Shown piece by piece: positions 17,117 through 31,664 of a stretch of DNA of 39,350 bases. The DNA comes from a virus. Its lineage: Duplodnaviria > Heunggongvirae > Uroviricota > Caudoviricetes. A program made the translations under genes and the position numbers. Where the stretch lies: the IMG/VR virus record IMGVR_UViG_2698536590_000009, positions 1-39,350 of that record, one strand, 5' to 3'. Under the pieces are notes generated by a model. It was not told the DNA's origin and made no database searches. It saw nothing but the letters and a program-made list of their open reading frames with translations. Position 1 is the first letter of the stretch; each line of letters opens with the position of its first letter.

Positions 17117-18145
17117 TTATGCGTATTTGGCAGACAACAGGGTGATCCCCTCAGGGCGGAAGTTCCAGCCCGGCGTCGCGCGCATGGTATACAACGTGGT
17201 CAGGCCACCATCCGGCATAGGGGATGGTATTTCCGTCGGCGCTGCCATATCACAGAACATCACGTTGACGGCCTGCTGGTTAGGAACCAGCGTGGAGAAA
17301 ATATTGGTGTTAATGGTATGACGCGCTTCCGGAACCTCAATCGTCGGGTTCGTAACGATGATCAGGTCATTACCACCAGCGCCTTTACCGATCAGCGTGT
17401 CGTCCTGGCAGAAAATGATGTCGTCGCCTGTCGCCTTATCGGCGACATCTTTAACCATCGTTCCCACCGTTCCGGTACCACCACCAGGACGCTGATAACT
17501 GGTCAGCTCAACAATTCCTGTCCACTCCAGCGCCTTCATGAATCGCTGTGGACTCAGAATAACAGTCGTTAATGGCTGCCCCAGCAGCAACATGCGGGTT
17601 TTCTGGTCAGCAATCAGGCCAAGCATAAATTTAGCCATCTCGCCGGAATCCCAGGTGGTGTACGAATCGTTACCTTTGCTGTCGTTGCCCAGATTCAGCG
17701 TCACTGCATTCGGGGAGTTGGTGATCCCTTCGTTATTCTTCGCTTCAACACCGTACAGCAGCATATTACGCAACATTTGAGCGTGTCCCTGGCGGTTAGC
17801 CAAGCGCAGGCCTTCAATCAGAGAATAGCCCCAGCGATCTGCTGCATCAGTATCGAGATAGCTGTATTGCGAGCGGGAAGAAATTCGATAAGTCATCATC
17901 CCGTCATAGCCACCAGAGATACTGGAAGACGGTAACTGGCCCGGCAGAGACTGGCTGACCTGCGCCTGCGAGGTCATGCGCAGATATTTCTGATAGACCA
18001 TCAAATCACTGGAACTGATTTTTACTGCCGGAGCACCACCAGCCAGGACTTCAAACGCCCCGGAAGCCATGCTCTGTTGCACGATCATTTCCGGCAGCAC
18101 CATTGACGGCGACACAATAGTAGTCGCAGGAGTAAATGCGCTCAT
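17117..18145 (-). CDS. Major capsid protein
   Basis: 342 aa, follows scaffold/protease and head protein genes, followed by strong terminator. Confidence 0.65.
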   Translation of the reverse strand: MSAFTPATTIVSPSMVLPEMIVQQSMASGAFEVLAGGAPAVKISSSDLMVYQKYLRMTSQAQVSQSLPGQLPSSSISGGYDGMMTYRISSRSQYSYLDTDAADRWGYSLIEGLRLANRQGHAQMLRNMLLYGVEAKNNEGITNSPNAVTLNLGNDSKGNDSYTTWDSGEMAKFMLGLIADQKTRMLLLGQPLTTVILSPQRFMKALEWTGIVELTSYQRPGGGTGTVGTMVKDVADKATGDDIIFCQDDTLIGKGAGGNDLIIVTNPTIEVPEARHTINTNIFSTLVPNQQAVNVMFCDMAAPTEIPSPMPDGGLTTLYTMRATPGWNFRPEGITLLSAKYA

Positions 18146-18159
18146 TAATTAATATCCCC

Positions 18160-18777
18160 TTAAATTAAAAACAGGCCGCACGGTTTGCCGATTTCCCAGA
18201 CAACGTTACCGCCATCCTCTTTTTTCACCGTCAGGTTTCCGTCAACTGAAACCATCAGCAGCTTAATATCCACTTTCGGATTAGTGCCGGGTGATCCCGA
18301 ATAAACATCAATCATGTTTTTCGTCAGATCCCACACAAAACCACAGGCAGCAACGGTGTTATTTCCATCAGCCAGCGCAACAACTTCTGCACTGACAGGG
18401 AGAGGAATGCGGGCACCTGAACCGACGCGGTAATAGTGAACAAAGCCACCCGCGAGATATAACGGCACCGGATTATCCGGCGTGGTAATGCCATGAAATG
18501 CCTGATTAAAGACAGTAAAGGCGTTACAGGCGTCATTCGTGGCCTGCTTGATAACCGCCCCGTTAACGCTGTCTTTCGCGGGAGCGATGCACTCGATAAC
18601 ACCGACACCACCCCATACCGGTTCACTGATTTTGCTGTCCAGTCGTCCGGAGCAAAGTTGCAGACGAATTGCCGGATCATCCTGCGCATCCCCCTGCATC
18701 AGCCCACGGGATTCGACGTTAAAAAGGCCACCAAATGCTCCACGGTTTTTAAACGGATGAAAGTTAATATCAGCCAT
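18160..18777 (-). CDS. Head protein (decoration or auxiliary capsid protein, putative)
   Basis: 205-aa ORF between scaffold/protease-like gene and major capsid gene. Confidence 0.4.
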   Translation of the reverse strand: MADINFHPFKNRGAFGGLFNVESRGLMQGDAQDDPAIRLQLCSGRLDSKISEPVWGGVGVIECIAPAKDSVNGAVIKQATNDACNAFTVFNQAFHGITTPDNPVPLYLAGGFVHYYRVGSGARIPLPVSAEVVALADGNNTVAACGFVWDLTKNMIDVYSGSPGTNPKVDIKLLMVSVDGNLTVKKEDGGNVVWEIGKPCGLFLI

Positions 18778-20092
18778 TGTTCAGGCTCCCTTGAGTGTTA
18801 ATTTTTGCCAGACGACGCCCCGGAATTTTGAAGGCACTCAGCCAGACGTTCGGATCGCCCTGATATTCAGTAATGCGACGCCCGGCTTCATCGTTGCGGA
18901 TACGTTTATGCAGTTGCCCCTGCGTACTCATCATTTCTTTTTCGATGGACTGACGGGCGGCACTGAAAATTGCGTCCTCAAGCACAGCCAGAGTTGCAGA
19001 ATCCGCAATCGCGCGAATATTGACGTCCTTATGTGCCGGAGAGTGTTTCTGCATAGCGATAAGCGCACGCTTGCGGTAGTCCAGCGCATTTTCTCCAGAA
19101 AACGGTGCTGGCGCGTTTTTACCGCAGGCACTGAATGCGGAGTCGGCTTTTGCCTGTGCTTCGGCCAGGGCAGAGTCATTGCGTTCTTTTTCTGCCTCCT
19201 CGTCAGCTTTACGCTGTTCTTCCGCTTCGGAATCAGCCTTTGCTTTCTCCTCAGCGTCTTTGGCTGCCGCCTCGTCAGCTTTGGCTTTTTCTTCCGCCTC
19301 CTTTGCCGCAGCTTCATCAGCTTTACGCTGTTCCTCTGCGGCTTCATCGGCTTTGGCCTTTTCTTCGGCCTCTTTTTTCGCCTGCTCTTCGGCATCCGCC
19401 CGCGCTTTGTCCCGCTGTTCCAGTGAGTCCATGCGCGTGACTACTCCATCGATTTTCTGATTAATTCCGCTCATGGCATCGTTCACCACCCCCTGTAACA
19501 GGGCCTGGAGTTCTTCTTTTTCCATCTCAATTTCACCTGTATTTGTCACTTCAACCCCTGCGGGGATCCGGTCTTTATCCCACACGCCCAGCGAGCCGTG
19601 GTCTTTCGTCACCAGGGCGATGTGATCAACAAGGAAAGGAACGCCTTCGATTAAAAAATTGGTGTCACCTTCCTGTACTTCCACATTTCCTGATGTGCTG
19701 TTGAACACCACCGACGGGCTTGTCGAAACATCCCCCTCAGTGATTTCTTCAACAATGCTCTGGAGGTAAACGCGGCACACCGCCCATACCTCATCACCCC
19801 GGATATACGGCAGCATGACGCTACCGACGATCCGCGATTTAAAGTCCTCCTCCGTCAGAACTGCGTCGTCAGGATGGTTTGCGATAACCGGAAGGCCATT
19901 GCATCGCCTTAAAAACTCCTCGTTAAGATAGAGCTTTGGATCACGCCAGACGTGCTCTTTCAGCCCGGCGCGATAGGCAAGCCCGGTTCCGGTTATTCGC
20001 AAATTCACCAGCCACATGTTGGAGAATTTCACCGGAGACGGTACGGTTCCGTCCCTGATGCGTTCTGCCACTTCAAGCTCGGTTAAACTCAC
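18770..20092 (-). CDS. Head scaffolding / prohead protease-like protein with coiled-coil Ala/Glu/Lys repeat region
   Basis: 440 aa; central AEEKAKADEAA-type repeats (charged, helical) typical of scaffolds; position between F-like gene and capsid gene. Confidence 0.5.
   Translation of the reverse strand: MSLTELEVAERIRDGTVPSPVKFSNMWLVNLRITGTGLAYRAGLKEHVWRDPKLYLNEEFLRRCNGLPVIANHPDDAVLTEEDFKSRIVGSVMLPYIRGDEVWAVCRVYLQSIVEEITEGDVSTSPSVVFNSTSGNVEVQEGDTNFLIEGVPFLVDHIALVTKDHGSLGVWDKDRIPAGVEVTNTGEIEMEKEELQALLQGVVNDAMSGINQKIDGVVTRMDSLEQRDKARADAEEQAKKEAEEKAKADEAAEEQRKADEAAAKEAEEKAKADEAAAKDAEEKAKADSEAEEQRKADEEAEKERNDSALAEAQAKADSAFSACGKNAPAPFSGENALDYRKRALIAMQKHSPAHKDVNIRAIADSATLAVLEDAIFSAARQSIEKEMMSTQGQLHKRIRNDEAGRRITEYQGDPNVWLSAFKIPGRRLAKINTQGSLNNG
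19190..19400. repeat. Imperfect in-frame tandem repeats inside scaffold-like gene (units such as TCAGCTTTACGCTGTTC..TC.GC and GGCTTTGGC.TTTTCTTC.GCCTC)
   Basis: Direct repeats visible in nucleotide sequence and as EEKAKADEAA/EEQRKADE repeats in the protein. Confidence 0.6.
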
Positions 20093-20906
20093 GTTTGCCC
20101 TTCTCCGTTAAAAATTCGTCGGGTAGTTTCTGAGGGGCGTAGATCGGCAGTGCATCGCAACTGCAATAAACCTCCTCCCCAGCAGCAGTGATTTCGTCAT
20201 AAAAACCATATACGGGCTTAATCAGCCCCTGCTCCAGCGCCCACGAATTGCGGAGGAGATAAATTTTCTCGTCGCGCTCTTTGTGGTCCTGTCGGTATTT
20301 GTAGCCCGGACGCCGCCAGTTAGAATGCCAGCGCAGAGCAATCGCTCCACTCTGAACAGCCAGCAGATACTTAACGTTGCTTGCCAGCTTATGCCCCTGG
20401 TCAATTGCCACCCGGCGACTGATAAAATCCATATCCTTCACGGACTTATGAAAACCGGACTTCACTTCCCAGCGATCAATTTCGCTCACCCCGTCAGGCG
20501 GAATGGACGTAACCCACCCCTGAAAACGCTGTATGGTTTTCTCGATGGCCTGTTCGCGGTTGAGTTTTATCAGGTTGGCACTGGCGAAAATTCGCCTGTC
20601 GAGTTCCTTGCGAAACTCAGGTTTCAGTTTTTCAACAGTGACTTTTTTAGGGCCGTCAGGAGGCTGCTCCCGTAATGCCCCGCCGTCGATGACAAGACGG
20701 CTGTAGATGGCGGTGAGATGTTTTCTGGCTACGGTATCATCAGGGGTTTCTCGCTGAGCGGCTACACGGAGTTTCCGGCACCATTCGAGCAATGATTTTT
20801 CGCTATCCCACCCGTGATTTACGTAGTAGTTAACGGCATCCGTCAGAACCTCATATAGCGTCCTGATCCGTTTCTTCTTCCTCACCGCCCGGCTGGAAAT
20901 TGCCAT
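20073..20906 (-). CDS. Minor head morphogenesis protein (Mu gpF-like)
   Basis: Position immediately after portal; ATG at 20906 with AGGAG SD (track ORF extends to 21044 inside portal gene). Confidence 0.5.
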   Translation of the reverse strand: MAISSRAVRKKKRIRTLYEVLTDAVNYYVNHGWDSEKSLLEWCRKLRVAAQRETPDDTVARKHLTAIYSRLVIDGGALREQPPDGPKKVTVEKLKPEFRKELDRRIFASANLIKLNREQAIEKTIQRFQGWVTSIPPDGVSEIDRWEVKSGFHKSVKDMDFISRRVAIDQGHKLASNVKYLLAVQSGAIALRWHSNWRRPGYKYRQDHKERDEKIYLLRNSWALEQGLIKPVYGFYDEITAAGEEVYCSCDALPIYAPQKLPDEFLTEKGKREFNRA

Positions 20907-22287
20907 CAGGCGTCTCCTGCTTCGGTGGTTCATAATTCGCCAGCGCGTCCACATCAATGATGAGTGGAGCTTCGCCATAGGTTTGCGTGGCATTAACAAG
21001 GCTTGCCAGCCATTCAGTGACGGCGGCACGGTTTTCAGGATCAACCTGTGGCGACACGGCAGAGAAAAGTGCTATCGCCTGTTGAATCACTTTACTGTCG
21101 CTTTCCCGGCGTTTGTCCGGCGACTCCTCCACCAGCTCCTGCCATGTCGCGGTAAATTCACGTCGCCACTGGTAAAACGTGGTTTTATAGTCATCAGTTA
21201 TGATGTCCGGGTAATCATTTTTCAGCGACTGATAAAATTCCTCGTTCCAGGCGATGTACTGCACCAGGCGTTCGAAATAATCCATCACAGGTTCAATCTG
21301 CTGGCGTACACCATCGATATACTGGCTGATAGCTTTCGAATCCTCAGTTCCTTCACCGAAACCATTCGAGAAAGCCTCCTCCTTGATGAGAATCGCGGGA
21401 ACATCGCTACCTGATGCAATATCGGAAATAATGTTGTCGCGGGCGGCATTTAGCGCGCCATCGATGTTTTGTAAATTCAGCGAGGTAACGTCCTCATCCT
21501 TCCCGATACTAAGCACACCTTTATTTTTTGCCTCTTTAACATTTTCCCTTTTTCGTCCCGTGGCGGCAGCCATGATCCCGTCAAGTTTCGAACCATACTG
21601 CACAACTTTAGCCACCAGTACGCCTGCCTTCTGGCTGACGAGATCATTCGCCTCCATCGTATTGATATAGGATTTCAGGGAATAAAGAACGCGCTGAAAC
21701 ACGCTTCGCCCGGTGAATCCGAACGATGAACTCTGAAACTCCAGATAAATCGGTGTGCCATTGAAAATTTTCAGTGTGCGTGACGGATGCCAGTCTTTTC
21801 CGCCAATCTTCAGCTTTTTATTGGCTTCCTGGAAAAACGGGCTGTTTGGGTTCTGGTCAGTCACCATCGAACCAGAAGCGTTCAACGGGTCCCACGCGTT
21901 GATATACACATCATCTTCTGTCAGTCCGAATGTCGGAAGCGGCTCACGACATGGAACACTGTCGGTGCCCACGCCGATCGCTGCGGCACCGTAGCAACGA
22001 GACAGAAAAAACAGATTTTTAATCTTCTCGTTAACCTTCATACGTTCCCATACCTCCTGGAAACGCCGCACAACCCGCTCGTCAGGGTCTGTCTCCACGT
22101 TGTACTGACGCGGCTTACACATCGCCATAAGTATGGGTTTTTCGACAAGTTTTCCGCCCAGAGGATGGAATTGCCACAGCTGCTTACACAATTCATAGCC
22201 AATGTCGGTTCCCGGCTGAATTTCTTCAGCCTCAAGAATATGCATCAGTGCTGAACCGAGGCCGCCAGTAATCTCGATCTCTGCCAT
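20851..22287 (-). CDS. Portal protein
   Basis: About 478 aa, acidic C-terminus, directly downstream of terminase large subunit; ATG 22287 with AGGA SD. Confidence 0.7.
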   Translation of the reverse strand: MAEIEITGGLGSALMHILEAEEIQPGTDIGYELCKQLWQFHPLGGKLVEKPILMAMCKPRQYNVETDPDERVVRRFQEVWERMKVNEKIKNLFFLSRCYGAAAIGVGTDSVPCREPLPTFGLTEDDVYINAWDPLNASGSMVTDQNPNSPFFQEANKKLKIGGKDWHPSRTLKIFNGTPIYLEFQSSSFGFTGRSVFQRVLYSLKSYINTMEANDLVSQKAGVLVAKVVQYGSKLDGIMAAATGRKRENVKEAKNKGVLSIGKDEDVTSLNLQNIDGALNAARDNIISDIASGSDVPAILIKEEAFSNGFGEGTEDSKAISQYIDGVRQQIEPVMDYFERLVQYIAWNEEFYQSLKNDYPDIITDDYKTTFYQWRREFTATWQELVEESPDKRRESDSKVIQQAIALFSAVSPQVDPENRAAVTEWLASLVNATQTYGEAPLIIDVDALANYEPPKQETPDGNFQPGGEEEETDQDAI

Positions 22288-22305
22288 CAAAAATATCCTG
22301 ATTTT

Positions 22306-23634
22306 TTACAACGCCGCGTAATTACCGTGCGCGATAATCAATCCATAGGTATAACAATCGAAAAGGTCATCAGCACGTTTATGTGCGTCTTTGTCTGCCA
22401 GGTGGAACCCGGCGATTTGTTTAATGAGGTGGTTTGCGGTGGTACGTTTGAATGAAACGGTCTTGTCGTAAGCCTCCCGGGCGATTTTGCACATCCCCTG
22501 ATAGTGGTAGCTGGATGCCATCACCGCCCGTTCGTCTTTACCTTTGCTGGTTAGTGCCGATTTAATCGGCGTCATATCCCAGCCTTCGGTTTCCGCCTTC
22601 TGGTTGAGGATTGCCCCCATCGCGGCGTCTTCCATAAAAATTCCCTGGCAGCCCAAACGCGGACGGCATAATTTCGCGAGGCGCTCGAGGTTTTCATAAA
22701 CGCCGGGGATATATTCAGGAAGCAATGACGCTTTAATTTGCGTCACATCCCAGTCAATAATCGTCAGTTTTGGCTCGTCCGAATACGTTGACTCATAAGC
22801 GAAATACACCACGCCAGTACCATCATTTTCGGTCCCGCCTTTCAGCGCCGTATCCATCACTGCGAAAATCATGTCGCAGTACGGCGGCATCTCAATTGGC
22901 TGACCGTCCACCAGCAGCTTATCGACATCGAGTAACGCGTCTTTGGACCAGTCCACGAACTCGGCAAGATATTCCTGCTGCCAAACGCGCGGATCGGATT
23001 TCTTCTCCGTTTCCTCCAGTTCTTCTTTCGGAATGTACGGATTCGATGAAGTTGGCGCATGGTGCATGACAAATCCCAGGGATTCATCGTGGCATATCGC
23101 GTAGAAAAAATTGCTCTCGTCGATACCGTTTGGTGTGGAAAATACCCACGCACAGCCACGGTAATCAACAAGCGTCGGGCGTATAGCGCGGGGCCAGATT
23201 TCCTCGAGCATTTCCGGCGATTTAGTGAATGCGGCCTCATCAATCAGCACAGCGTGATATTTACGCCCACGCCCGGCCAGTTTGTTATTGTCCGTTACCC
23301 AAAAGTCGATGCGCCCCCCATTACGGAGAATAATGCGCTTTTCATTTTTTGACTGGCTGAGGATCAGCGGTTGCAGAACGGCGCTAATTTCATCCCAGAT
23401 TTCCTGGTACTGTCGGTATTGTGCGGTAAAAATCCCCACCCTACCCGCGATAAGCTGCCCGGTGGTAGGAACGGCAAATTTCCGCGTCGCGAAACTGGTA
23501 GCGATGTTCACCAGCATCACCGTTTTACCCCAGCGACGACCACAGCATACCGCGTGGAAGCGTTCCTCTATTGCCGCCGTCCATGCAGCTATTTGCCCCT
23601 CATGAGGTTTTGGGAGGTAGATTTCAATCGACAT
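22306..23634 (-). CDS. Terminase large subunit
   Basis: Walker A (CCGRRWGKT) and Walker B-like (VLIDEAA) motifs; 442 aa; overlaps small-subunit stop. Confidence 0.85.
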   Translation of the reverse strand: MSIEIYLPKPHEGQIAAWTAAIEERFHAVCCGRRWGKTVMLVNIATSFATRKFAVPTTGQLIAGRVGIFTAQYRQYQEIWDEISAVLQPLILSQSKNEKRIILRNGGRIDFWVTDNNKLAGRGRKYHAVLIDEAAFTKSPEMLEEIWPRAIRPTLVDYRGCAWVFSTPNGIDESNFFYAICHDESLGFVMHHAPTSSNPYIPKEELEETEKKSDPRVWQQEYLAEFVDWSKDALLDVDKLLVDGQPIEMPPYCDMIFAVMDTALKGGTENDGTGVVYFAYESTYSDEPKLTIIDWDVTQIKASLLPEYIPGVYENLERLAKLCRPRLGCQGIFMEDAAMGAILNQKAETEGWDMTPIKSALTSKGKDERAVMASSYHYQGMCKIAREAYDKTVSFKRTTANHLIKQIAGFHLADKDAHKRADDLFDCYTYGLIIAHGNYAAL

Positions 23635-24715
23635 TATCCACTCCCGGCATCGGCAGAGAGTTGTGGATAATTATTTCGTTATTCTCACCACCCACACCTT
23701 TTTTGAGGTTTTCAATCTCAGTGCGCAGCTTTTCGTTGCGAAGCCTCAGTCCTTCAAGCTCCAGATCATTGCGACTGTCAGTTGCACCACCAGCAGAACT
23801 TCCTTTCGTCGCCGTTATCAGCTTGATAAGTTCGCGCCGGGCGGCAGCCTTATCCTCCAGCAGGATCTCAACGCCGAATTTTCCGAGCTTTGCCCCTGCA
23901 TATAATTGCCGCGCATCCCCATCAAGCAGAGCGGTATCAGCCATATAAAGCTGTCCCATTCCCTCACCGCAGCACTTCGGGCAGTCCAGATTGGGTATGG
24001 CGTTATCAACAAAGCCAAGGCCTCCATATTCCGGCTCGGGTTTGCCATCTCTGGAGGCCTGTGCCGCTGCCTTATCGAATTCTGCAATATCACGCCACTG
24101 GTAGAGGTGATTCTCGCCCCAGCAATAACGGCAGTTAACACGGCGAAATTGTGCCAACTGATTGGGGTCGGCCTGGACAATGGCCATCAACTGACTCACC
24201 AGTAAATCCAGGTCTGCGGTATAGCGTTTCTGATACTGATTGCGGAAGTAGCTGATAGCACGATAAACCCTGGCATTTCTAAGCATACGGCTGGCGTTGC
24301 TGTTAGCTGTCGCACCTTGCCCCTCATAACCAGCCAGTCGGTATGCCTCTGTCGGCTTTTTCCCCTGAGCAACAAGCATCGCAAACTTAGCCTGCTGGTC
24401 AGAAATGCCGAATTCATCGGGGCAGAACGAAAATTCCTCCGCGTCGCCCTCATTCAGGCACGCATCGGATACTGGCTTTTTTTTCTGAGATTTTCCGTTC
24501 CGCTTTTGCGCAGTCTGCGCAGATTTTTTCTGCGCACTTTGTTGCGCAGTTTTGCGCATTTCTGTCTGCGCATTTTTCGGAGGTTTTTTGATGTAACGAC
24601 GGGCTGTTGCGTAATTCAGTCCCCTTGCCTCACACCATGCCACCGGGGATACACCGGAGCGGGTGTATTCAGCAATATATTCCTGCTGCAACGCCCCCCA
24701 GTCCGGTCTGCTCAT
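23624..24715 (-). CDS. Terminase small subunit-like DNA-binding protein
   Basis: N-terminal HTH-like segment, basic/Cys-rich region, immediately upstream of and overlapping large terminase. Confidence 0.55.
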   Translation of the reverse strand: MSRPDWGALQQEYIAEYTRSGVSPVAWCEARGLNYATARRYIKKPPKNAQTEMRKTAQQSAQKKSAQTAQKRNGKSQKKKPVSDACLNEGDAEEFSFCPDEFGISDQQAKFAMLVAQGKKPTEAYRLAGYEGQGATANSNASRMLRNARVYRAISYFRNQYQKRYTADLDLLVSQLMAIVQADPNQLAQFRRVNCRYCWGENHLYQWRDIAEFDKAAAQASRDGKPEPEYGGLGFVDNAIPNLDCPKCCGEGMGQLYMADTALLDGDARQLYAGAKLGKFGVEILLEDKAAARRELIKLITATKGSSAGGATDSRNDLELEGLRLRNEKLRTEIENLKKGVGGENNEIIIHNSLPMPGVDNVD

Positions 24716-24718
24716 TAG

Positions 24719-24928
24719 TTAGTCCTGATTTTTATCCACCCTGAGTAGTTCACGCAGGGCAAAGGCATCCCCTTTTCTGGCAAGCTTAAACAATGCCGCC
24801 CGTAGTTCGGCTTCACCTTTCGCTCTGCCCTTACGGATGGATGCGTAAAAATCTGTCATTGCTTCCCGATTTTCTTTCAGTCGGTTCAGATCAACATCCA
24901 GAACGTCAGCGATTTGTTGTGCAGTCAT
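24719..24928 (-). CDS. Small hypothetical protein (start uncertain)
   Basis: Track ORF 24719..24970 overlaps upstream gene; shorter ATG starts possible. Confidence 0.3.
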   Translation of the reverse strand: MTAQQIADVLDVDLNRLKENREAMTDFYASIRKGRAKGEAELRAALFKLARKGDAFALRELLRVDKNQD

Positions 24929-25838
24929 CCGGCACGCTGCCAGAGACTCTACTTTCGAATACGGAATCATTTGTCACCCCCATTGATATGCAGGGTGTCT
25001 TCTTCCTGTATTTTTCGTGAAGGATTTTTACTGCAGCGTTGTTCCAGGTGACCTGATGGTGAATGCGTTTATGGCTGGCACCCATCAGTGAGATTTTTAC
25101 GCACGACGGCGCATACATGACGGAGTAAAAACTTTTAACGTAGGTTCCGGAGTCCAGATACAGCTCGGTCATTCCGCCGCTGTTTTTCTGCGTCTGTTTC
25201 TGCCCTAACTGGACAGCACCGATCGTCATAAACAATTCACCACAGCGACCAAGATTCGTATACGTATTCACATCCTCGTTAATGCGCCCCATGAATGAGA
25301 ACGGTCGATCAACGGAACAGATAAAACTGTTCATTGCCTTGCGTTTCACCCACGAAGCATGGCCGCCATTGTCACCAAGAAAATCTCCGCCCTGCGACAT
25401 AGCGATGGAAAGCGCAGGTATTGATTCGTAGTACGCCAGCATTTCAGAAAGGATCGCATCCAGTTTTCTTATCGGGAAATAGGCCTGGTCATAGTTGCGA
25501 TCCACCCGAAACTGGAACTCGTGATAATCATCATCGAGCTGAATGAAGTATTTACACCCGACCAGTTTTGCCAGGTCGAAACAGGCATTACGGGCGTAAA
25601 AAATTGATCGGCGGTCACCGAAATTATCGGCTTCGTCAAAACGACTGGCGATATCGGCTTTGGAAAACACCAGCACCTGTTCACTAAATTCAGCTATGTA
25701 GTGATGCCGTGTATTATCTTCATCATCAACAACGATAAAAATTTTCCCGGTATAGCCAGCACGACGCAACGTCCGGTAAGTCAGAACTTTGTCCGGTCGC
25801 CCGTGAGTCAGAATAAAGGCGCAAAAATCATCACGCAT
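24906..25838 (-). CDS. Hypothetical protein with DxD-type acidic motifs (IVVDDED, QLDDDY); possible nucleotide-sugar transferase-like or DNA-modification enzyme
   Basis: ATG at 25838 preceded by GGAGGAGGAGG SD (overlaps ParB-like stop by 8 nt); motif reading only, no confirmed family. Confidence 0.4.
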   Translation of the reverse strand: MRDDFCAFILTHGRPDKVLTYRTLRRAGYTGKIFIVVDDEDNTRHHYIAEFSEQVLVFSKADIASRFDEADNFGDRRSIFYARNACFDLAKLVGCKYFIQLDDDYHEFQFRVDRNYDQAYFPIRKLDAILSEMLAYYESIPALSIAMSQGGDFLGDNGGHASWVKRKAMNSFICSVDRPFSFMGRINEDVNTYTNLGRCGELFMTIGAVQLGQKQTQKNSGGMTELYLDSGTYVKSFYSVMYAPSCVKISLMGASHKRIHHQVTWNNAAVKILHEKYRKKTPCISMGVTNDSVFESRVSGSVPDDCTTNR

Positions 25839-26610
25839 ATTCCTCCTCCTCCCCGCCATGCATGATCTCCACCATACGCTGCGTCATCCGGACAAATCCA
25901 TTTTCAATAGCCTGCTGATAATCAATGATCACCAGCGCCGATTCCTCGAAAAAGCACTGAATTTCAGCGGGGGCGTGAGCGTAATAGTCCGCAATTCTGC
26001 TGAAATTAAACACCGTATGACGTTCTGCCGCACACAGGAGGAATTTCTCAATATCAGGATCAAGGGACGCCGAACGTATCCGGCTGATCAACTCCTGAGT
26101 TTTCGTATCGTCGTACAGTTCACTGATATCTGGTTTATCGCCCGACGGCTCATAAACAGGCGTATCAATTTTCGTCGTGTACGGTTCCTCCTCATTTCCT
26201 GTACCGGGCAAAACATCCGTCAACAGTTCATCAATTTCTGTCGGGCTGAATCCTGTCAGGGAGATATCAAAATCAGCATTGATTAGGTCCGACAGCTCCA
26301 TCCGTAACAGATCTTCATCCCAGCCAGCATTCATCGGCAGGCGATTATCTGCCAGGCGGTACGCCTTTTTCTGATCATCCGTCAGACCAGACAGAACAAT
26401 AACCGGAACCGAATCCATTTTGAGCGCCTCAGCCGCCATAACGCGACCGTGACCAGCAATAATTTCGCCCTTTTCATCAATCAGCACTGGATTAGTCCAG
26501 CCGAATTGCTTAATGCTTTCTACCAGTTGTGCCACCTGCTCAGGGCTGTGTGTCCTGGCATTGTGTGCATACGGAGACAGTTCTTGTAACGGGCGATACC
26601 AGTGATGCAA
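25831..26610 (-). CDS. ParB-like nuclease domain protein (ParB/Srx fold)
   Basis: N-terminal LSPYAHNARTHS...NPVLID...IAGHGRV matches ParB N-terminal domain signature; acidic C-terminus. Confidence 0.7.
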   Translation of the reverse strand: MHHWYRPLQELSPYAHNARTHSPEQVAQLVESIKQFGWTNPVLIDEKGEIIAGHGRVMAAEALKMDSVPVIVLSGLTDDQKKAYRLADNRLPMNAGWDEDLLRMELSDLINADFDISLTGFSPTEIDELLTDVLPGTGNEEEPYTTKIDTPVYEPSGDKPDISELYDDTKTQELISRIRSASLDPDIEKFLLCAAERHTVFNFSRIADYYAHAPAEIQCFFEESALVIIDYQQAIENGFVRMTQRMVEIMHGGEEEEYA

Positions 26611-26938
26611 TATCCTGCTGGTGGATGAACGACAGAATCTTCACCGAAATCACCGATACCAGTACCGCGCAAAGCGCGTCGAGAGATGTGCTGTGTAGCC
26701 CCAGTTTTTCGACCAGATAAGACGCCATGACATCCGCCCCCAGCACGCCAACGATAAACGACACCAGAAAATGCGCCGCCACACGCCAGACAGAAATCTG
26801 CTGGGGTATCGTCGCCACAAACAACGCCCCGGCGAATGCACCAAACACAATCCCGAAATCCGTTCCGGTAAACAGTCCAAATACCGTCGCCCCACCGAGC
26901 GCCGCAGCCGTACCGGAACCGGATAAGGGTTCAGACAT
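26540..26938 (-). CDS. Holin-like small membrane protein (3-4 predicted TM segments)
   Basis: ATG 26938 with GGAGG SD; Gly/Ala/Phe-rich hydrophobic segments; position before terminase genes as in lambdoid lysis cassettes, but no endolysin adjacent. Confidence 0.4.
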   Translation of the reverse strand: MSEPLSGSGTAAALGGATVFGLFTGTDFGIVFGAFAGALFVATIPQQISVWRVAAHFLVSFIVGVLGADVMASYLVEKLGLHSTSLDALCAVLVSVISVKILSFIHQQDIASLVSPVTRTVSVCTQCQDTQP

Positions 26939-26953
26939 GCTTTTTCCTCCCAC

Positions 26954-26979
26954 AAATAAAAAAGGGCCGCCAGCGGCCC
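26954..26979 (-). terminator. Rho-independent terminator (GGGCCGC-loop-GCGGCCC + U-run) immediately upstream of holin-like gene
   Basis: Seen in sequence. Confidence 0.45.
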
Positions 26980-27065
26980 GTAAAAACACCCTGTCAAAGG
27001 CACCCGCAGATGCCTTTTGTGTGGTGTTATCTGATGTGATGTGCGCCGGGCGTGGCGCGGATATG

Positions 27066-27383: not shown

Positions 27384-27456
<73 letters not shown>

Positions 27457-28761: not shown

Positions 28762-28838
28762 TGGTCCGCCACCGAGGACTCGAACCTCGCACAATCAACT
28801 TAGAAGGTTGATGCTCTATCCCGATGAGCTAGTGGCGG
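28762..28838 (-). tRNA. tRNA-Arg (anticodon UCU), phage-encoded (argN-like position in lambdoid late region)
   Basis: Manual cloverleaf with encoded CCA; anticodon loop CUUCUAA; rare-codon AGA/AGG decoder typical of lambdoid phage tRNA islands. Confidence 0.8.
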
Positions 28839-28840
28839 AA

Positions 28841-28916
28841 TGGTGGCCCTTGCTGGATTTGAACCAGCGACCTGGCGATTATGAGTCGCTCGCTCTCACC
28901 ACTGAGCTAAAGGGCC
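28841..28916 (-). tRNA. tRNA with CAU anticodon, closely resembling E. coli tRNA-Ile2 (ileX-type, lysidine-dependent); ileZ-like phage tRNA
   Basis: Manual cloverleaf with encoded CCA; strong resemblance to remembered ileX sequence; Met identity cannot be excluded from sequence alone. Confidence 0.8.
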
Positions 28917-29056: not shown

Positions 29057-29770
29057 TTAGCGCACTTTGACTATATTAATTTCAAATTCATCTGTATGTG
29101 CGCTATTAAGTATAACGAAATTCGTACTACCGTGCCTGTACGATTTTGATAAAACCAAGCGATCACCATAGCGAGCAAGAACGTAATACCAAACGCTCTC
29201 ATAGTGAAGTGTCTGATACTCCTTCTTAAACTGAGGTTTGTACCATCCAGCAATAAGCGAAAACAACCAGAAATAGAGCATGAATCCGGCCATAACACAC
29301 TCAATCTTGTGATGCCGAATAAAAGACACTTCAGAAATACATTTAACGTAAATAAACTTCCTGCCCGTTCTGACGAACATGGTAATTATTAATGCCACAA
29401 TAGCGCATAAAACCAATGCATCTGGTACAAAGTGCTGATGAATTACCGAAAACTCCAGAGCCGGAGGAACAAAAAGCAACAATATCGCAAGAAAAAGCCT
29501 GACAGCACTCAAATCCTTCATATTATTTTTTTGTTTGATCCCCAGAAAGAAGACAATACCGATCCCCCATCCAGCCAAGAATATAACGATAACTGTGACA
29601 GCATAAAACAGGCTTCTGGCCACATCATCAACACCGGCCCCGACAACCCACCATGGAAAGCCATAGTAAAAGGAAGTACCCCAGCCATAGAAATAAGCAC
29701 TTCCCCACCCAAGACACCCCATGTAAGCAACAAAAAGTGAAGAATTCCTGAGCAGAGTACTGTCACTCAT
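29057..29770 (-). CDS. Polytopic inner-membrane protein of unknown function (accessory/moron gene between Q terminator and tRNA island)
   Basis: About 237 aa, 4-5 hydrophobic helices then a short soluble C-terminus; strongly AT-rich; ATG 29770 with GAGG SD. Confidence 0.55.
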   Translation of the reverse strand: MSDSTLLRNSSLFVAYMGCLGWGSAYFYGWGTSFYYGFPWWVVGAGVDDVARSLFYAVTVIVIFLAGWGIGIVFFLGIKQKNNMKDLSAVRLFLAILLLFVPPALEFSVIHQHFVPDALVLCAIVALIITMFVRTGRKFIYVKCISEVSFIRHHKIECVMAGFMLYFWLFSLIAGWYKPQFKKEYQTLHYESVWYYVLARYGDRLVLSKSYRHGSTNFVILNSAHTDEFEINIVKVR

Positions 29771-30109
29771 AATCATCCTCTAACAACTTAACAACATTAA
29801 CTCGCTTTACATAACAAAGAAAATTCCATGTAGTCAAGAGGGTTCAGGAAAGGAGAAACTAAAATTGCATAGCCATCATAAAGTTTAACGTACCAACCTG
29901 CTTTTTCAGGTATAAAAAAACCAACCTCAAGGAAAGGCTGGCATAAGAAAAGTAAATAATGATTCCACTAAAACTTCGTCGCAGGAGGAATCCTGTGCCG
30001 CTTAACATACATAAAATTTAGACAACTAACAATCACAATATAAAATATTTAAGATTTCGTTATCAAAATACCAGTCAGTAGAGCGCCAGCTCTCCCGTAG
30101 ATGGTTAAA

Positions 30110-30223: not shown

Positions 30224-30766
30224 TCAAGCCATTTTTTGAGCAAATGATTCTCGCATGGGAATGTATAGCGCACACTCAGCAACAGCCAACCAATTAGCAA
30301 TTCGCTTTTCGCATGTGCTAAAACAACACTCTGGATACTGTTCGTTTAGTAACCCGGCCATCCTTCTCTTACTCATTCCTCGCCCCTCATACCGTTGTCG
30401 GAGGATGCTAATCAATCCCGGATGTTCTGCCAGCACCTCACTTATAACCCGATCAATACATAACGCCTCTGCATCAGTACAATGCGCCAGCCAGCTCTTT
30501 TGCTTACCATTGATCATCTCTCGCAAAAACGCTTCCAGCTCAGGTTTCTCTATTCCCGCTTTTTTCATTCTGCGCAGGGCTTCATTGATGGCTGTTTTCG
30601 TCAATTTTTTGGATGCCAACAACTGATTGAACATATTTCCTGACCTGCCACCACCAATATATGACCAGCGCCCCCACATACGTAGTTTTCCCTGAATCCA
30701 GACACTTTCCAGCGTAGTGAGACGAAGGTGTTCTCCGCTTTTTCCTGTATTCGTTGGGTAAATCAT
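30224..30766 (-). CDS. Late-gene antitermination protein Q-like
   Basis: 180 aa; position immediately upstream of late promoter/terminator; RMWGRW segment resembles the RWGAW segment of Q family proteins (recollection). Confidence 0.5.
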   Translation of the reverse strand: MIYPTNTGKSGEHLRLTTLESVWIQGKLRMWGRWSYIGGGRSGNMFNQLLASKKLTKTAINEALRRMKKAGIEKPELEAFLREMINGKQKSWLAHCTDAEALCIDRVISEVLAEHPGLISILRQRYEGRGMSKRRMAGLLNEQYPECCFSTCEKRIANWLAVAECALYIPMRESFAQKMA

Positions 30767-31053
30767 AAATATCCCTCCTTTCTCCAGATTTCTTGTGTGC
30801 GAAAAACACCTTCTGCATGCATCAGGCGTAATTCTTCTTTGGTGTAATCACTGGTTTTTACCCGCCCGTCGATTAAATCGTGGCACGATCTACAGGCAAT
30901 CGCTGCCTGCATATCGTGTGGTTTTGCCGCTGTTCCGCACGTCCCCGCCAGTCGGTAATGCGCCAGCACAGAAGTTTCGGGATTGTGATTGCAGTAGCCA
31001 GGAATTCTGACGGTGCACATCTGCCCCCGCGCCGCTTTACGTAAATCCACCAT
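30763..31053 (-). CDS. Cys-rich nin-region protein (YbcO/DUF1364-like, putative nuclease)
   Basis: 96 aa with C..C...C..C..H pattern; location just upstream of Q as in DLP12. Confidence 0.45.
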   Translation of the reverse strand: MVDLRKAARGQMCTVRIPGYCNHNPETSVLAHYRLAGTCGTAAKPHDMQAAIACRSCHDLIDGRVKTSDYTKEELRLMHAEGVFRTQEIWRKEGYL

Positions 31054-31664
31054 TACGCAAACTCCAGTAACTGTGCGACCACATTTTCGACTTCCTCCGG
31101 AGAGGAAAATTTACGGAACAGGATCCAGTTCCACAGCACATTCAGTACAGATTTATAAACCTGCTGAAACTCGGTTTCGTCCATATTCGCAAAAGCGATG
31201 GATTTCGCCCGGCGTCCACGGCTACCGTCCGGATAAAAATGCTCGGTGTAAAATCCGGCCTGAATGGTTATCCATTCGCGAAAAGCGTCAAATGACTTGA
31301 GTAAGGCCGTATCCCGGGTTCTGCGAGTCGCAACGGTGTTAAGGTATTGCTCTGCAGCATCACTAAGGGCTGGCGTATGTTCCCGACCTACTGATTCGCA
31401 CAGGAAATCAACGAAACCGGACACCAGTTCTCGTTCGCGAGGCGTGATCACCCCACCGACCGGAGTCCAGTAATCGAATCCCAGTTGCAGGAGTTTGAAA
31501 AAACGCTTGTGGAATGAGTAGTTACGCACACGCTTAAAGTCTGCGTGTATCCACTCACCTATTTTGATTTGATGCAAAAAATCGCAACTCTCCGGCGTCG
31601 CCGGGAGAAGTAATCCGGAAGAGGTTTGTTTGACCAGTTGTATATGCGCCATTGCTGTCTCCAA
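31053..31664 (-). CDS. nin-region protein (DUF1367-like)
   Basis: 203-aa ORF; positional and general resemblance. Confidence 0.4.
   Translation of the reverse strand: METAMAHIQLVKQTSSGLLLPATPESCDFLHQIKIGEWIHADFKRVRNYSFHKRFFKLLQLGFDYWTPVGGVITPRERELVSGFVDFLCESVGREHTPALSDAAEQYLNTVATRRTRDTALLKSFDAFREWITIQAGFYTEHFYPDGSRGRRAKSIAFANMDETEFQQVYKSVLNVLWNWILFRKFSSPEEVENVVAQLLEFA

Follow-up and report, generated by a model that had tools for sequence, protein, structure and literature searches.

The C-terminal domain of a ParB-like protein is the constant partner of a phage TAGT-family glycosyltransferase, seen in a truncated copy in a decaying E. coli prophage

Why does a temperate phage keep a ParB-like gene, overlapping a second gene, just ahead of the genes that package its DNA? 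The question is raised by positions 24906-26610 of IMG/VR virus record IMGVR_UViG_2698536590_000009 (Duplodnaviria; Heunggongvirae; Uroviricota; Caudoviricetes), a stretch of 39,350 nucleotides that was analysed at full length and is called the window here. An earlier note on this DNA had proposed that the pair, a ParB-like protein and a 310-aa protein, could be a DNA-modification or anti-restriction module, a proposal that we find plausible and the best reading of the locus. Our analysis shows that the 310-aa protein belongs to the Pfam TAGT family of glycosyltransferases and, beyond what that note had seen, that its constant partner across many phyla is the C-terminal domain (CTD) of the ParB-like protein and that the ParB gene of the window has lost its 5' end in a lysis-defective prophage. 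Both Pfam families of the pair are already known, and by analogy the pair would be a ParB-partnered enzyme of DNA-modification type in which a glycosyltransferase replaces a dioxygenase or methyltransferase. Our literature search returned no description of the strict ParB-CTD/TAGT module, of its CTD or of its independence from hydroxymethylating enzymes. All genes of the region lie on the minus strand, and the pair is made up as follows (RBS, ribosome-binding site; NTP, nucleoside triphosphate; AF2, AlphaFold2; pLDDT, predicted local distance difference test):

26323..26598, minus strand, ParB/Srx N-terminal (NTP-binding fold) domain, without its first 8 native codons and RBS
26188..26322, minus strand, acidic linker, helical then disordered, native residues ~101-145 (AF2 secondary structure, low pLDDT)
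25834..26187, minus strand, CTD, native residues ~146-263 (cross-phylum alignment)
25831..25838, minus strand, stop/start overlap of 8 nt (ATGCGTGA), ParB TGA at 25833-25831 and TAGT ATG at 25838-25836
24906..25838, minus strand, TAGT-family GT-A glycosyltransferase, 310 aa, intact, ATG at 25838-25836

The 310-aa protein, in which the earlier note had recognised no family, is a member of TAGT (PF20691, TET-associated glycosyltransferase), which Iyer et al. reportedly defined in 2013. It scores 117.5 bits (cutoff 27.5; E 1e-33), residues 8-222 aligning to positions 4-205 of the 205 in the profile, and matches phrog_842 at E 1e-101. The motifs IVVDDED (D38, D39, D41) and QLDDDY (D102-104) are present as described, and the suggested check for a GT-A fold came out positive: homology searches lead to TAGT, and the AF2 model, which is unreliable beyond residue ~150, has a GT-A fold by fold comparison. 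Across 63 non-redundant homologues R14, D38, D41, D102-D104, E188-D189 and H260-H261 are conserved at 95% or more, and a complete R…DDD…ED catalytic set is predicted from the sequence. This set agrees with motifs reported both in phage GT-A DNA glycosyltransferases and in the base-J glucosyltransferase (bioRxiv 10.1101/2023.12.21.572611). Residues 199-280 form a basic region (isoelectric point, pI, 9.5) that is specific to this TAGT subfamily (phrog_31222). The E. coli protein ends in a 22-aa extension that homologues of other genera do not have; its coding stretch (24906-24970) overlaps the next open reading frame (ORF) by 65 nt, or by 23 nt from the PGAP start at 24928. The protein is neither a terminase nor a head component; either identity would, by the earlier note, have counted against its proposal. 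Two other assignments were rejected: a CCHH zinc site in the C-terminal half, as C246 is not conserved and C174 only to ~80% in the 63 homologues, and a seroconversion or lipopolysaccharide glycosyltransferase, given the lack of membrane segments, the late-operon position and the ParB partner (sequence and gene order).

The upstream protein carries a ParB_N domain (PF02195; 28.7 bits against a cutoff of 26.3) with Boxes I, II and III and a clear fold match, in agreement with its previous assignment as a ParB N-terminal (Srx-fold) protein. A linker with a net charge of -12, whose length and sequence vary between phyla, leads to an acidic CTD of ~110 aa with the motif Y[TS]xKIxxPxYEPxxxxP and then FLxxAAxRHxxF…IAxYY…QxLxExSALVIID…AIExG. 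Profile and structure searches placed the CTD in no Pfam or NCBIfam family and detected no relative of it in the PDB. It occurs in 1,183 clusters at 50% identity and is C-terminal in all of them; a ParB N domain is detectable in 119 of 148 CTD representatives, and the others are either ParB-like proteins that have diverged, or gene fragments, or proteins made of the CTD alone. In these 148 representatives (taken at 50% identity) the second tyrosine of the motif is invariant and the first is conserved in at least 90%, both in a proline-flanked segment that is predicted to be disordered. The partner is not a partition ParB, because its model and fold matches contain no helix-turn-helix (HTH), there is no adjacent ParA gene and TIGR00180 is matched below cutoff (37.3 against 58.45) by the N domain only; the "partition protein" annotations are misnomers. 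Matches to phrog_498 (E 1e-50, profile 37-171 of 633) and to PADLOC MTase_II (E 1e-38, profile 13-151 of 436) cover only the ParB part, and no methyltransferase domain is fused to the ParB N domain. The idea of a defence system was set aside, PADLOC having given nothing for either protein beyond the methyltransferase-type ParB domain.

The two genes are bound together both locally and across phyla. A purine-rich GGAGGAGGAGG tract at ~25842-25854 codes for the ParB C-terminal residues GGEEEEYA and doubles as a Shine-Dalgarno sequence, which agrees with the translational coupling, through an 8-nt overlap and a Shine-Dalgarno inside the acidic ParB C-terminus, that had been read from the sequence before. 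A stop/start overlap of 1-20 nt recurs in 59 of 61 non-redundant pairs from many phyla (8 nt in 17, 11 nt in 30), and because of this recurrence the overlapping arrangement is more than chance. Of 43 genome loci seeded with TAGT (Enterobacteria, Bacteroidota, Firmicutes, Planctomycetota, Actinobacteria, Chlorobi, Desulfobacteria and Saccharibacteria), 41 have ParB-CTD immediately upstream and the other 2 are truncated. Of 80 viral loci seeded with the CTD, all 80 have TAGT as the next gene downstream. The pair is found in phages of Lactobacillus, Nocardia and Vibrio, in the haloarchaeal virus HHTV-2 (there at 41-42% identity) and in a phage of Porphyromonas, whose two partners have diverged together to 26-27%. 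The glycosyltransferase is under strong constraint across bacteria and archaeal viruses.

Within the partner, it is the CTD and not the ParB domain that is constant, since in Vibrio phage pv27 the TAGT partner is a CTD alone (L046:5459-5878; 139 aa, 52% identity, E 2e-39), since TAGT and the CTD each have a median pairwise identity of 50% against 29% in the ParB domain, and since the Box II arginine of the ParB domain has been lost in several lineages. A mirror-tree correlation between TAGT and CTD (r = 0.40) is weakly supportive over a narrow identity range. A first search of IMG/VR by means of the TAGT alignment yielded near-identical E. coli prophages only and is uninformative on diversity.

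We tentatively read the pair as a two-subunit glycosyltransferase that would be expressed late and act on phage DNA around packaging, by analogy with the ParB-dependent phage thymine dioxygenase 5mYOX176/ParB176 (O'Toole et al., PNAS 2026, PMC13229309). There, ParB-like proteins composed of a nucleotide-binding domain (NBD), a linker and a CTD, with no DNA-binding domain, are obligate cognate activators of the dioxygenase on double-stranded DNA (PMC13229309). Both systems place the gene of a modification-family enzyme beside a ParB-like NBD-linker-CTD protein without a recognisable DNA-binding domain, and cognate pairing is common to the two, so that by architecture and adjacency (the 41 of 43 and 80 of 80 loci above) the present pair falls in with the published systems. 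NTP-motif residues appear dispensable in both, point mutants of the 5mYOX176 system being active and Box II losses being found here. The enzymes differ, a GT-A glycosyltransferase here and an Fe/2-oxoglutarate dioxygenase there, and unlike the 5mYOX176 system the present one has no downstream hypermodification genes. The likeness of the CTDs to ParB176 is one of described architecture, and a dependence of TAGT on its partner is suggested by the genomics.

Under this two-subunit reading, ParB-CTD and TAGT would work as one functional unit dependent on a nucleotide sugar. The acidic CTD, through its invariant Tyr/Pro linear motif, may dock on the basic C-terminal half that sets this TAGT subfamily apart, and the ParB domain may provide NTP-gated engagement of duplex DNA, as in the ParB-dependent thymine dioxygenases. 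The complex would be made late and would glycosylate replicated phage DNA shortly before or during packaging, and this glycosylation could protect against restriction in the next host. The identity of the enzyme is supported by the TAGT score, the GT-A fold and the conserved R…DDD…ED…HH set, and the pairing also by charge complementarity, as the C-terminal half of TAGT has a pI of 9.5 and the partner one of 4.45. A link to DNA is drawn from the dioxygenase precedent above and from two further sides. Characterised phage and kinetoplastid TAGT members glycosylate DNA (PMC13216743; bioRxiv 10.1101/2023.12.21.572611), and the ParB-N subtype of the partner is that of the ParB-N::methyltransferase fusions (phrog_498, PADLOC MTase_II; PMC12704722), which are likewise prophage-enriched and often near terminases. 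The effector of those fusions is the fused N6/N4 methyltransferase, whereas here it is a separate glycosyltransferase with a dedicated CTD that may recruit it. The position of the pair, in the late operon and ahead of terminases of at least five families, also speaks for this reading.

Several points weigh against a DNA target, and the first is chemical. To our knowledge, canonical duplex DNA offers a glycosyl-acceptor hydroxyl only at its ends, and the acceptors of characterised members of the TAGT superfamily are all hydroxyls, those of 5-hydroxymethylcytosine (hmC), 5-hydroxymethyluracil (hmU), glucosyl-hmC or, in GREB1, Ser/Thr. The window holds no TET/JBP, hydroxymethylase or other base-activating gene, and the nearly identical prophage of E. 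coli VG48B2, inventoried from intR to the tail genes, has neither a methyltransferase nor TET/JBP nor a hydroxymethylase. A census of 75 non-redundant loci, which scored gene clusters present in at least 3 of them and reached mostly +/-7-8 kb, found neither TET/JBP nor a thymidylate-synthase-like hydroxymethylase among the recurrent neighbours. As no gene in sight would supply a hydroxylated base, what is known of TAGT chemistry is not simply transferable; either ordinary DNA contains an acceptor of a new kind or the enzyme acts on something other than DNA. The partner is strongly acidic, with no recognisable DNA-binding domain in its model or fold matches, and the Box II losses mean that NTP gating is not universal. 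In the AF2 models the C-terminal half of TAGT is poorly predicted and the CTD only moderately well. From the literature, Pyle et al. (2024), who mention ParB-like genes near phage glycosyltransferases in passing, consider glycosyltransferase contigs that lack 5mYOX or ThyS to be less obviously DNA-modifying, and the animal TAGT-domain protein GREB1 is a protein O-GlcNAc transferase (PMC7968844).

If the target is DNA, the lack of a visible hydroxymethyl-pyrimidine source points to an acceptor that unmodified DNA already offers, either a canonical base or one of its ends. A bolder version, which we consider rather unlikely, is that the pair is a self-sufficient, packaging-coupled DNA glycosyltransferase that would place a sugar directly on an N or O of a canonical base or on a DNA terminus, with no hydroxymethylation; the CTD would then be a duplex-opening or acceptor-positioning element.

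The alternative that survives best, possible if doubtful, is protein glycosylation. Most economically, TAGT would modify the invariant Tyr or Thr in the disordered motif of its own partner, in the manner of glycogenin; a different protein of the phage or the host is also possible. The function of the resulting glycoprotein would then come from the ParB domain. The conservation of the two motif tyrosines in a disordered, proline-flanked segment is what a substrate site would predict, strict co-encoding and translational coupling suit an enzyme-substrate pair equally well, and so does the missing source of a hydroxylated base. GREB1 provides a precedent for a protein acceptor; it shares the glycosyltransferase domain family with the 310-aa protein, whereas it is a 1,949-aa eukaryotic multidomain protein that acts on ER-alpha, with no ParB partner or phage context. 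Several points stand against it. DNA is the substrate of those phage members of the family that have been characterised; the ParB subtype of the partner is the one that occurs in fusions with DNA methyltransferases; a basic C-terminal half, such as TAGT has, suits nucleic acid; the Vibrio phage copy lies in a replication module; and no role is known for a glycosylated ParB-like protein.

The genes downstream bear on a third possibility, that of a packaging accessory. As the earlier note had stated, the pair stands ahead of packaging genes:

24719..24970, minus strand, small HTH ORF of 83 aa (PGAP: 69 aa, 24719-24928), between TAGT and the terminase small subunit
23624..24715, minus strand, terminase small subunit TerS, Pfam Terminase_2
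22306..23634, minus strand, terminase large subunit TerL, Pfam Terminase_6N, with the portal gene further downstream

The HTH ORF matches phrog_309 (terminase small subunit, partial; E 1.7e-22) and is kept in the enterobacterial copies L002-L005, L017 and L026. The first large downstream ORF is a terminase subunit in most of 62 non-redundant loci, and these terminases fall into at least five Pfam families (Terminase_6N, Terminase_3, Terminase_2, GpA and TerL_ATPase). ParB-N proteins without CTD or TAGT also stand directly upstream of terminases, in Escherichia phage vB_EcoM-613R2 (L208) and Streptococcus phage Javan517 (L207), because of which ParB-fold genes heading the packaging module would seem to be a general phage theme with interchangeable effectors. 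On this evidence the ParB-like protein could be a pac/cos or terminase helper, or a nicking "ParB-like nuclease", with TAGT modulating packaging proteins or being a passenger. Its place immediately upstream of the terminase in most loci, whatever the terminase family, speaks for such a role, as does the proposal of Aravind and co-workers, in the form in which it is cited in PMC8256090, that ParB directs modification machinery during packaging. We nevertheless hold this role to be improbable, for the ParB domain is the least conserved part of the pair, has lost its Box II arginine repeatedly and is missing in Vibrio jumbo phages; help to terminases of at least five unrelated families does not explain a near-absolute CTD-TAGT linkage; and the pair of pv27 lies far from packaging genes. 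In the 191-kb Vibrio phages it sits among primase, exonuclease and helicase genes and not beside the terminase.

Less probable again is a classical enzyme acting on hydroxymethylated bases, with hmC, hmU or a glucosylated base made elsewhere or by a co-infecting element and the enzyme idle in E. coli-like hosts. The T2/T6 beta-glucosyl-HMC-alpha-glucosyltransferase and the TET-associated phage DNA glycosyltransferases are TAGT members (PMC13216743), and the TAGT of the pair shares with them and with the 5mYOX-associated enzymes the Pfam family, the GT-A fold, the R…DDD…ED set and the phage origin. C5 and N6/N4 methyltransferases are among the recurrent neighbours (5-8 of 75 loci), together with replication genes, Q, RusA and similar, and the short flank covered by the census in most loci leaves room for a more distant source. 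Against this, no gene cluster of the required kind recurs in the 75 loci, and the intR-to-tail inventory of the VG48B2 prophage lacks one as well; an identity of ~50% across bacterial phyla and an archaeal virus is also incompatible with an idle gene. The T2/T6-type enzymes use hmC or glucosyl-hmC from a dCMP hydroxymethylase, or from a methyltransferase plus TET, and have no ParB-CTD partner, whereas the subfamily described here has its extra conserved basic C-terminal region, an obligate partner and no hydroxymethyl source in sight. The T-even TAGTs are so divergent that tblastn at 1e-5 does not reach them, and no ParB gene lies beside them. For these reasons (the partner, the extra region and the absent hydroxymethyl source) the PHROG/Pharokka label "beta-glucosyl-HMC-alpha-glucosyltransferase" is an over-annotation when given to these prophage genes.

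Least probable of all is an anti-defence enzyme with a small-molecule or nucleotide target (an immune signalling nucleotide, an NAD-derived signal or an RNA 2'-OH) and the ParB/Srx domain as its nucleotide-binding module: ParB/Srx folds do bind CTP, ATP or GTP and include kinases of small molecules, SerK and Srx among them (PMC12704722), and nucleotides and RNA, unlike canonical DNA, have free hydroxyls, but the family offers no precedent, the late pre-terminase position is atypical of early-acting anti-defence genes, the ParB domain is dispensable in some lineages and no PADLOC model other than the methyltransferase-type ParB domain was matched.

The interest of the two-subunit reading, and of its rivals, is family-wide, the copy in the window being a damaged example in a decaying prophage. 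A recent survey left 288 of 753 glycosyltransferase-bearing phages with a "solitary" TAGT without defined function (NAR 2026, PMC13216743). Our data indicate that a large TAGT subfamily is not solitary; it has an obligate CTD partner that is usually fused to a ParB fold and typically heads the packaging module. These two small genes bear on glycosylation without a hydroxymethyl handle, on roles of ParB folds beyond a single dioxygenase and on modification modules beside terminases. Were the target DNA, the pair would bear on restriction evasion by temperate phages and possibly on tools for DNA labelling; were it the partner protein, the pair would be a new phage protein-glycosylation system. 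Should the self-sufficient version hold, it would be a new class of DNA modification, shared by temperate phages of many bacterial phyla, a haloarchaeal virus and the prophages of about one sixth or more of complete E. coli genomes. The analysis also corrects three widespread misannotations, namely "partition protein ParB", "beta-glucosyl-HMC-alpha-glucosyltransferase" and "GREB1-related", the last being the name ("GREB1-related protein") that PGAP and UniRef give the 310-aa protein.

What remains of the module in the window is set by a deletion. Compared with VG48B2 (L001) by blastn, the window lacks 1,320 bp (L001 7899-9219), and the break, which falls in the stretch 26540-26989, leaves two features:

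26595..26598, no strand, deletion junction with a 4-nt TATC microhomology (blastn against L001, ORF maps and junction sequences)
26540..26938, minus strand, chimeric holin-1 ORF (Phage_holin_8), out of frame into the ParB gene

Holin 2, the M15 endolysin and a spanin-like ORF were lost with it, and as a result the prophage is unable to lyse its host. The deletion also took the 3' end of holin 1 and, from the ParB gene, the RBS and the initial 8 codons. The holin-1 ORF now runs 60 nt out of frame into the ParB gene, and the deletion is genuine, as the identical fused ORF is on record in assembly GCA_001575515.1 (contig LOOJ01000054.1). In VG48B2 the native ParB gene encodes 263 aa, starts MSEKLKIVYRPLQ and has its own GAGG-N5-ATG. 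The 259-aa ORF that begins with a TTG at 26610 in the window, the upper limit of the feature in the earlier note, is not the native gene; its TTG-MHHW codons come from holin 2, and the true gene is truncated at its 5' end. Both the TAGT gene and the Shine-Dalgarno that serves it are undamaged, with 100% identity to VG48B2. With the start and RBS of ParB-CTD and the lysis genes of the prophage lost, the module of the window is probably inactive or only partly expressed.

The window is a lambdoid prophage and, by sequence comparison, nearly identical to that of VG48B2, which is integrated at ttcA and carries intR, xisR, ralR, recT and recE; this site and these genes make it, and the window prophage with it, a Rac-family element. 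PGAP names the homologous ParB gene ynaK, as in the K-12 Rac remnant. The window keeps an intact TAGT and the CTD, whereas ynaK of the E. coli K-12 Rac prophage is, we take it, a short ParB-domain-only remnant, and K-12 Rac presumably has no TAGT. The VG48B2 prophage and IMG/VR UViG_2703718855_000003 (L047) are otherwise 100% identical to the window; both retain the lysis cassette and both lack 17127-21103 (head genes) and 30308-31629 (the Q-region genes DUF1133, YbcO and DUF1367), so that the sister prophages are decaying by different deletions. The 2-kb region is mostly present in ~866 of 5,426 complete E. coli genomes and partly in 1,747.

Some minor observations concern TAGT loci elsewhere. 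Many E. coli TAGT homologues are on record as odd fusions with NlpC/P60, tail-fibre and other phage domains, which suggests frequent deletion-fusion at this locus in cryptic prophages. In 3 of the 75 loci an NAD-dependent epimerase/dehydratase (GDP_Man_Dehyd/Epimerase; L177:11203-12198) lies ~4 kb downstream of TAGT, and it is possible that this is a sugar-nucleotide tailoring enzyme for the glycosyltransferase.

Others concern the rest of the window. The portal gene (20851-22290; L001 2404-3588) is Pfam Phage_portal_3, and its PGAP label in VG48B2, "anti-CBASS protein Acb1 family protein" (pseudogene), seems to reflect either a family whose name misleads or a model that is a fusion. Three tRNA genes (27384-27456, 28762-28838 and 28841-28916) lie between the Q region and the lysis genes; they are Gly-TCC, Arg-TCT and one with a CAT anticodon (Met by ARAGORN, Ile by PGAP). 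A multi-pass membrane ORF of 239 aa without a Pfam match (29057-29776), placed between the tRNA genes and the Q-like gene, is possibly a moron; at the equivalent position in locus L209 the gene matches PF27470 (TfpB).

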